Below, in pieces: positions 34,583-34,828 of a stretch of 64,000 nucleotides of DNA. The notes below the pieces were generated by a model. The model did no database searches. It had not been told where the DNA came from and saw nothing but the letters and a program-made list of their open reading frames with translations. Source of the stretch: an uncultured Candidatus Peribacteria bacterium (lineage in GTDB: Bacteria > Patescibacteriota > Gracilibacteria > UBA1369 > LOWO2-01-FULL-3); contig CAYLHX010000003.1 of NCBI GenBank assembly GCA_964383675.1, positions 2,412 through 66,411 on the forward strand, given 5' to 3'. The translations under genes were made by a program, and so were the position numbers. Each line of letters begins with the position of its first letter. Position 1 is the first letter of the stretch.

Positions 34583-34823
34583 GGGGGGACTTACGTCCCC
34601 CCGCCTTTGGTACGTTGTGCGAAGGTATCTGACAGAAGGCGTCAGCCGGTCCGCGAAGCGGATCCGTCAGATACCCCAGGGGAATCCCCTCTTCAGCTAG
34701 GGGATTTCCCCTGGGCATTGCACTAACTGAGTCTCTCTCACACCTTCCAAGGAAGATGGTCAACGAGAGTACCGCCCACCTTGCGGTGGAGGCACCCGCC
34801 ATAAGACGGGACTGCTACCAAAG
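34583..34823 (-). ncRNA. RT-proximal copy of a structured ncRNA (unit plus trailing GC hairpin), forming the 5' leader of the RT gene
   Basis: - Closing helix: 34605..34612 ctttggta pairs with 34816..34823 taccaaag.
- Three-way junction stem: 34624..34633 pairs with 34666..34675.
- Long hairpin at 34676..34714.
- Small hairpin ccacc-ttgc-ggtgg.
- Terminal 8-bp GC hairpin at 34583..34602, whose loop reads GUAA on the minus strand.

The strand was assigned from flanking promoter-like elements, from G.U pairs that exist only on the minus strand, and from co-orientation with the RT gene. Confidence 0.6.
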
Positions 34824-34828
34824 ACGAT

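Follow-up and report, generated by a model that had tools for sequence, protein, structure and literature searches.

Tandem msr-msd-like RNA genes upstream of a divergent, retron-related reverse transcriptase in a Candidatus Peribacteria genome

The closest described counterparts of the system considered here are the retrons, whose non-coding RNA (ncRNA) carries terminal repeats that pair with one another, short hairpins in its 5' part and long, stable stem-loops in its 3' part (Mestre et al., 2020; PMC7736814). In retron structures, the repeats IRa1 and IRa2 are bordered by a conserved 'branching G and opposing G' (PMC13402713), an arrangement which has likewise been stated for Eco7 (PMC12673091). 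In the retron reverse transcriptase (RT), the NAxxH motif sits in region X, between RT2 and RT3, and has been tied to initiation or catalysis, while the VTG triplet, of which the G is the most conserved residue, has been tied to msr recognition (Mestre et al., 2020; PMC7736814). Here we describe a locus in a window of 64,000 nucleotides, by which we mean the whole stretch of DNA analysed, from an uncultured Candidatus Peribacteria bacterium (assembly GCA_964383675.1, contig CAYLHX010000003.1). A gap of 592 nt between an upstream gene and an RT gene holds two ncRNA units on the minus strand, 40-600 nt upstream of the RT start and on the same strand as the RT. We read these units as paralogous msr-msd-type RNA genes for the downstream RT, in each of which a guanosine at the junction of the closing helix (34815 or 35106) would prime cDNA synthesis via its 2'-OH, and we give this reading a probability of roughly two in three. 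The retron comparison is supported in every part that sequence analysis is able to test; because its RT is without two motifs that define retron RTs and falls short of the curated cut-offs, the system is a retron-like variant and is not filed as a retron proper.

The units are closed by a helix, P1, which joins their two ends and is bordered by the candidate initiation sites:

34903..35116, minus strand: distal ncRNA unit, about 214 nt, with P1 formed by 35114-35107 and 34912-34905
35106, minus strand: distal candidate branching (priming) guanosine, invariant in 25 of 25 units, in parallel with retrons
34913..34914, minus strand: distal invariant C-G, comprising the candidate opposing G34913 and the candidate first template base C34914
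34603..34825, minus strand: proximal ncRNA unit, about 223 nt, with P1 formed by 34823-34816 and 34612-34605 and extended to 10 base pairs (bp)
34815, minus strand: proximal candidate branching guanosine, invariant, directly 3' of the P1 5' strand
34613..34614, minus strand: proximal invariant C-G, comprising the candidate opposing G34613 and the candidate first template base C34614

In the proximal unit, C34823..A34816 (CUUUGGUA) pairs with U34612..G34605 (UACCAAAG) over 8 bp on the minus strand, and the helix reaches 10 bp when U34824.G34604 and G34825-C34603 are added; on the plus strand, the first of these additional pairs is an A.C mismatch. The order along the unit is G34825-U-CUUUGGUA-G34815-C34814 ... 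A-C34614-G34613-UACCAAAG-G34604-C34603. In the distal unit, 35114..35107 pair with 34912..34905 through the same two sequences, and the residues right after the 5' strand are G35106-C35105. The first-pass annotation of this DNA had described an 8-bp helix joining the ends of both units, its extension to 10 bp in the proximal copy through a U.G pair particular to the minus strand, and G-C as the first unpaired residues after the 5' strand; each of these is read directly from the letters, and the coordinates are exact. P1 is present in the minimum free energy folds of both units (z = -7.2 and -4.9 against dinucleotide shuffles), which are 78% identical to each other. The window's own genome (1.33 Mb, 98.8% complete) holds no further copies of the RNA.

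The comparison across loci rests on 25 complete units from 7 loci with the same operon of RT, AAA+ ATPase and a protein combining a zincin-like head with a von Willebrand factor A (vWA) domain; paralogues within an array are not independent, and the independent sample is the 7 loci. The window RT is only 20-48% identical to the RTs of these loci. P1, with 6-10 bp, is found in 25 of 25 complete units and in differing sequences (CUUUGGUA/UACCAAAG; CCUUGAUA/UAUCAAGG; UCUGGUU/AACCAGA; CCCAGUU/AACUGGG; GAUCCAAUU/AAUUGGAUC). Covariation was counted on an anchored alignment of 20 units (A5), in which standard pairs fill 94.4% of the P1 cells, compared with 20-47% when the partner strand is slid by 1-3 columns. 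Both sides have changed in 7 of the 8 pairs, and the covariation score of 0.736 stands against 0.314 +/- 0.035 for shuffled alignments and is reached by none of 500 shuffles. In addition, RNAalifold recovered P1, together with hairpin P4 of the 5' domain, independently in both sub-clades. Since compensatory changes are present in seven of the eight pairs, chance is excluded and P1 is a real conserved helix; the proposal that terminal repeats close the molecule as the a1/a2 repeats of retrons do thus holds across the seven loci.

While the sequence of P1 drifts across units, three junction nucleotides stay fixed. The G directly 3' of the P1 5' strand is invariant (25/25 units), the next residue being C in 23 of them and U in the other 2, and the C-G directly 5' of the P1 3' strand is equally invariant (25/25), with a preceding A in 22 of the 25. 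P1 is therefore bordered by two invariant guanosines which face each other. The Ec86 ncRNA, read from an E. coli genome, runs UGCGCACCCUUA-G-C...CUGAC-G-UAAGGGUGCGCA, in agreement with the first-pass annotation, which had placed its priming guanosine directly 3' of the repeat at CCCUUA-G-C. When the window junction (...UUGGUA-G-C...AAC-G-UACCAA...) is set beside that of Ec86 (...CCCUUA-G-C...GAC-G-UAAGGG...), the junction UA-GC...ACG-UA is identical in both, the window units reading GGUA-GC...ACG-UACC.

The protein encoded next to these RNAs points in the same direction:

32501..34564, minus strand: reverse transcriptase, 687 amino acids (aa), with the RT core at about residues 70-330 and a YADD motif

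By profiles, database ranking and predicted fold, retron RTs are the nearest relatives of this RT. Among the NCBIfam models it ranks retron_St85 (3e-16) before group II (5e-11), Drt3a (1e-5) and Drt2 (0.05), and the PADLOC retron RT models give a partial match at about 1e-13 that covers the palm only. An unfiltered HMMER scan covered 1.84 billion representative proteins; in it, the family ends at about 1e-30 (36 proteins) and retron RTs come next: 70 of 71 tested nearest non-family proteins match PADLOC and NCBIfam retron models (best E 1e-134 and 1e-110), the best group II match of the same 71 is 7.5e-24, and the consensus of these neighbours has NAxxH and VTG. An AlphaFold2 model of the RT (mean predicted local distance difference test score 74.5; RT core mostly > 85) returned in Foldseek retron RTs as all of its top 11 PDB matches (Eco8, Ec86, Eco7, type I-A and Eco2), and the R2, group II, G2L4, Abi-P2 and DRT2 RTs rank after them. 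Furthermore, the RTs of the more distant sub-clade keep the retron-like motifs IPKGxGxxRxIxxP, DIxDFFPS, LPQGAPTSPxLxN and GRYADDIV. Because the closest relatives by profile, ranking and fold are retron RTs, distant common descent is preferred over convergence. The first-pass annotation had allowed for either, and the former has stood while the latter has not; we take the RT family to be a deep branch of the retron RT lineage rather than a convergent look-alike.

Across the loci, RT length varies from 583 to 753 aa and YADD is invariant; the C-terminal extension of about 350 aa is without known relative. A set of shorter RTs (P0030-P0036; 380-450 aa; E 1e-55 to 1e-74 to the profile) lies between the family and ordinary retron RTs, and in these proteins the GLRxM and WG motifs of the family are present and the long C-terminal extension is absent.

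The predicted folds give the units a common layout, consisting of P1, a 5' domain with three hairpins (P2-P4) and a 3' domain in which a short stem holds two long hairpins together:

35101-35086 (P2), 35085-35061 (P3) and 35060-35024 (k-turn-like P4), minus strand: distal 5' domain, msr-like
35018-34914, minus strand: distal 3' domain, msd-like, with two long hairpins
34809-34796 (P2), 34795-34769 (P3) and 34768-34732 (k-turn-like P4), minus strand: proximal 5' domain
34727-34614, minus strand: proximal 3' domain

The loop of P3 is of the GNRA type, and the internal loop of P4 follows the kink-turn pattern of a C-stem, a 3-nt bulge and tandem GA/GA (G.A/A.G), as in CUCUC-GUU-GA-CC...GG-UGU-GA-GAGAG. 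This pattern also occurs in the units of five other loci (L001, L002, L014, L016 and L017) and is less clear in L003. Between the two window copies, the 5' domain is near-identical, and the hairpins of the 3' domain have diverged in sequence with their pairing kept. A closely related strain, present in two public metagenomes, carries 4 substitutions in one unit and 5 in the other, against 10 changes in the spacer of about 75 nt; these include a compensatory change of A34712-U34678 to C-G in a 3' hairpin of the proximal unit and one change of U.G to C-G in P2, the other unit substitutions all being located in loops. An Rfam scan of the window and five related loci gave no relevant covariance-model match, which says nothing on kinship with retrons, because Rfam misses the Ec86 ncRNA too. 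Open reading frames of 93-105 aa overlap the units (34521-34802 and 34760-35041 on the minus strand, 34843-35160 on the plus strand). These frames do not stay open in homologous units and, as genes, are best taken as spurious.

A sigma-70-like promoter precedes each of the window units, with the predicted +1 falling within about 2 nt of the first P1 base:

35120..35148, minus strand: distal promoter-like site, TTGACA-17-TATTTT, TG extended, 10/12 matches
34882..34899, minus strand: distal intrinsic terminator hairpin of 7 bp (6 G-C), followed by a U-rich tail
34829..34857, minus strand: proximal promoter-like site, TTGACT-17-CATTAT
34583..34602, minus strand: GC hairpin 3' of the proximal unit, GGGGGG-ACGUAAGU-CCCCCC, without a U tract

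The last of these hairpins was not called in the terminator scan, and because it has no U tract, transcription of the proximal unit probably reads on into the RT gene.

Taken together, these elements suggest a mechanism that follows the retron scheme. P1 would serve as the a1/a2 closure, setting G34815 or G35106 opposite G34613 or G34913 as the opposing G. The RT would recognise the conserved 5' domain (P2, P3 and the k-turn-like P4) as a handle, which would explain its preservation among paralogues whose 3' domains have diverged. Priming would come from the 2'-OH of the guanosine on the 5' side (34815 or 35106), and copying would start at the invariant C beside the opposing G and proceed into the 3' domain, giving a branched, RNA-linked single-stranded DNA (ssDNA) with two hairpins as the product. 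With two units in the window and as many as ten at related loci, one RT would produce different cDNAs. The cDNA-RT particle would presumably control the AAA+ ATPase and the metalloprotease-vWA protein encoded downstream, as the multicopy single-stranded DNA (msDNA) of retrons does its effectors. From the analogy with retrons, we infer cDNA synthesis, 2'-OH priming, the template start and a role in defence, of which the last is plausible in view of the variable genomic contexts of the loci.

A weak hint at a DNA product comes from a motif, GCUN(N)CGC, which is enriched in the 3' domain: it is found in 15 of the 25 units (28 occurrences), compared with 2.9 +/- 1.6 units in dinucleotide shuffles, and it is strand-specific, with its reverse complement occurring once. 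Copied into cDNA, the motif would read d(GCGN(N)AGC), which is known as an 'extraordinarily stable mini-hairpin DNA' (PMC13037366). In the window, the motif is located at 34645-34659 and 34939-34945 on the minus strand, and it is also present in the units of L003, L017 and L022, those of L017 carrying three overlapping copies (GCUNCGCUNCGCUNCGC). Because it is absent from L001, L014 and L016, the motif is not a family-wide requirement. A more far-reaching proposal is that one RT serves an array of independently transcribed msr-msd-like genes, alike in the handle for the RT and unlike in the hairpins to be copied, and thereby maintains a repertoire of differing branched msDNAs, many of them tipped with nuclease-resistant d(GCGNAGC) mini-hairpins, as parallel sensors or decoys which gate the MoxR-like AAA+/vWA-metalloprotease effector, so that the whole would constitute a multi-template retron immune system in bacteria of the candidate phyla radiation (CPR). 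This we put forward tentatively, as a possibility with somewhat worse than even odds.

Relatives of the locus are few. A word-index search of 5.8 billion proteins gave six other 90%-identity clusters of the RT (seven with that of the window), a search with the AAA+ protein added four further, more distant operons, and the full HMMER scan yielded one more. A single-protein scan of genome contigs and an alignment scan of metagenome contigs for RT relatives both returned nothing, and an alignment scan of genome contigs returned only one already known Peregrinibacteria contig and one spurious match at 25%. With its 36 matches below 1e-30 in the full scan of representative proteins, the family is very rare, which probably explains why it went unnoticed. 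The named sources of the relatives are 'Patescibacteria group bacterium' and 'Candidatus Peregrinibacteria'. The gene order RT, AAA+, zincin-vWA is identical at every locus and the flanking genes vary from locus to locus. Homologous ncRNA genes were found at every locus where upstream DNA exists, in the following numbers:

L001: 1 unit
L016: 1 unit
Window: 2 units
L003: 2 units
L014: 4 units, at 3150-4150
L022: 5 units, at 4180-5960
L017: 10 units, at 1050-4200

In the larger arrays (L014, L017 and L022), there is one diverged unit every 235-376 nt, and almost all units come with a TTGACA-type promoter and a hairpin terminator of their own. Many independent assemblies stop within a unit, 150-350 nt ahead of the RT gene (L002:1, L004:1, L005-L009:1, L015:1 and L023:1), and the assemblies of the window locus in the subsurface metagenome runs X1 and X4 break at 34795-34824, within the 5' half that the units have in common. 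Presumably, short-read assembly fails at these conserved 5' halves where units stand in tandem, and public contigs underestimate the number of units. The RNA of the L017 sub-clade has an extra 5' hairpin, P0, which precedes the a1-like strand (e.g., 3282-3325), and P2 and P3 are absent from it. Here, the GC after the helix bulges out as two nucleotides, with P1 on one side and an invariant UGUU/AACG pairing on the other; an extension of P1 past the GC by this pairing was considered as a family feature and rejected, as it is confined to L017.

The RT gene is followed by two partner genes, which complete the operon:

29257..32535, minus strand: AAA+ ATPase of the AAA_5 (MoxR/dynein-like) kind, 1092 aa
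27310..29247, minus strand: protein with a zincin-like head and a vWA domain, 645 aa, the last operon gene at every locus

At every locus, the AAA+ gene comes after the RT gene; its product measures about 960-1,090 aa, and large flanks of it are unassigned. Its Pfam match to AAA_5 is sub-threshold (16.5 vs 22 bits), and a PDB sequence search returned only dynein AAA modules, at E of about 0.02. The zincin-vWA protein measures about 630-690 aa across the loci, and its vWA domain passes the Pfam cut-off. In 8 homologues that are 22-50% identical to the window's protein, HExxHH and a downstream NxxxDxxLE (gluzincin-like) are invariant, as is a complete metal-ion-dependent adhesion site (MIDAS; DxSGS...T...D). 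These conserved residues make it likely that the peptidase site and the adhesion site are both functional. For this protein, a PDB sequence search gave only generic integrin I-domain matches.

Several observations weigh against the reading of the units as msr-msd-type genes with a priming guanosine. Against the best retron model, NF038233, the RT scores 59.5 bits and misses the threshold of 235. As the first-pass annotation had already pointed out, the RT is without NAxxH and its motif 7 is not VTG: in the alignment, the position taken by NAxxH in the retron neighbours reads GLRxM or similar in the family, and VTG is replaced by ILG, FLG or VWG, with the G kept in nearly all members. Canonical retrons have one msr-msd that is co-transcribed with ret, whereas the family has 1-10 units, each under its own promoter and most of them with a terminator, and at several loci the RT has a promoter to itself. 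In L017, the closure is not strictly terminal, since a 5' hairpin lies ahead of the helix. The invariant junction nucleotides could instead be protein contacts and not a primer. The three metatranscriptomes of the same study contain no match to the locus, and the DNA runs that hold it (Logan contigs) have a flat depth. The small independent sample noted above belongs to the same side of the balance.

Some of these points are also what an alternative account of priming draws on. According to this account, the RNA is a partner or template of the RT, and synthesis is protein-primed, de novo or 3'-OH-primed, as in DRT2, DRT9, Abi and G2L systems, with P1 only setting template boundaries or docking the RT. 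The absence of NAxxH, the region-X motif linked to initiation or catalysis (PMC7736814), fits this idea, and so do the C-terminal extension of 350 aa that retron RTs do not have, the appearance of DRT2, Abi-P2 and G2L4 RTs in Foldseek at E of about 1e-7, and the transcription of the units independently of the RT, as is possible for DRT ncRNAs. We nevertheless consider it unlikely, given that the two invariant guanosines at the helix reproduce the exact retron initiation geometry and that retron RTs outrank every other RT class in each comparison. Moreover, no frame is stop-free across the units, which leaves a DRT2-type concatemer gene unsupported, and there is no short repeat at the template ends, so that template jumping is unsupported as well.

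Quite improbable, in our view, is a role of the RNAs that involves no reverse transcription, namely one in which they would serve the AAA+ and vWA proteins as scaffold, decoy or antitoxin, comparable to Y RNA-Ro60 or to RNA antitoxin arrays. Ro60 is a vWA-containing protein that pairs with Y RNA, and the vWA protein encoded in the operon prompted us to consider a counterpart of this pair; the idea was dropped, since Pfam finds only vWA and no TROVE/Ro domain in the protein and the RT is retron-related. In favour of an RNA-only role, arrays of separately promoted and terminated units look like small-RNA gene arrays, and the k-turn-like motif and GNRA loops suggest a folded ribonucleoprotein. 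It would leave aside that an RT with intact catalytic motifs adjoins the RNA genes at every locus and that the junction matches retron priming sites; furthermore, the strand-specific GCUN(N)CGC fits a DNA mini-hairpin better. That the inverted repeat is a functionless product of chance or of tandem duplication has virtually no likelihood: an 8-bp inverted repeat at a distance of about 200 nt is not rare on its own, and the window units, being 78% identical, share theirs by descent, but seven of eight pairs are compensated in 20 units taken from loci with RTs of only 20-48% identity, and four quite different sequences all form the helix.

The searched literature contains no RT / AAA+ / vWA operon with such RNAs, nor retrons with ncRNA gene arrays. 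We regard the locus as representing a system of ultra-small bacteria which is undescribed, very rare and retron-related, and which departs from retrons in three respects: a divergent RT with a large C-terminal extension, 1-10 separately promoted, tandem msr-msd-like genes, and a presumed effector module made up of a MoxR/dynein-like AAA+ and a zincin-vWA protein. If the junction G is indeed the branching guanosine, retron-type 2'-OH-primed reverse transcription would extend to a lineage without both signature motifs, and the truly essential features of retron initiation would lie in the RNA, at the junction and its pair of guanosines, and not in NAxxH and VTG. It would also be the first retron-like system to combine up to ten template RNA genes per RT, an AAA+/vWA-metalloprotease pair and a home in the Patescibacteria. 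A compact RT that accepts many natural templates with a common handle could, in addition, interest those who use retrons to produce ssDNA in cells.

Among other known systems, DRT2 (UG2), known for rolling-circle cDNA and its neo gene, resembles the locus in having a structured ncRNA upstream of a defence RT and a helix that unites the ends of the template region, and differs from it in that the similarity of the family RT to that of DRT2 is marginal (NCBIfam Drt2 E = 0.05; Foldseek rank 23). A DRT2-like 'neo' reading was also rejected, as there is no consistently stop-free frame across five units and no repeated motif at the template ends. In diversity-generating retroelements (DGRs), the TR RNA reportedly primes cDNA from an internal ribose 2'-OH, as Handa and colleagues are said to have found in 2018, and self-priming from an internal 2'-OH of the template RNA therefore has a precedent outside retrons. 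Unlike in DGRs, there is no TR/VR pair or Avd-type gene among the called genes of the loci, for which no dedicated search was made, and the DGR RT takes Foldseek rank 32, below retron, R2, group II, G2L4, Abi-P2, DRT2 and AbiA RTs. MoxR-type AAA+ and vWA proteins are known as pairs from RavA-ViaA and CbbQ-CbbO. The operon shares with them an AAA_5-like ATPase whose gene precedes that of a vWA protein with its MIDAS intact, and is distinguished from them by the sub-threshold AAA_5 match, an ATPase of about 1,050-1,090 aa and the zincin-like head of the vWA protein.

About 80% of the RTs in the CPR have been assigned to DGRs in a 2021 review of prokaryotic RTs, from which vWA and MoxR are absent (PMC8632793), as they are from a 2026 metagenome survey of retrons (PMC13712802). 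The 13-type retron classification makes no mention of vWA or AAA (PMC7736814), and in the conflict systems of Kaur et al. (2020; PMC7159879), which are of the MoxR-type AAA+/vWA kind, the RT is described as belonging to a diversity-generating system. Compared with retrons themselves, the family differs by the absence of NAxxH and VTG, the extension of about 350 aa and scores far below curated cut-offs of its RT, by an msd-like part with two long hairpins where retrons have one, by MoxR/dynein-like AAA+ and zincin-vWA partners, and by its hosts, which are Patescibacteria/Peregrinibacteria-type genomes. As in retrons (Eco1/Ec86, Eco7 and Eco8), the ncRNA genes sit just ahead of the RT gene and share its strand, in the window and also in L001, L003, L014, L016, L017 and L022; a helix of the a1/a2 type, bordered by two conserved guanosines, joins the ends of the RNA; the msr has 1-3 hairpins, here P2-P4, and the 3' part has long stem-loops; and accessory genes follow the RT in the operon.

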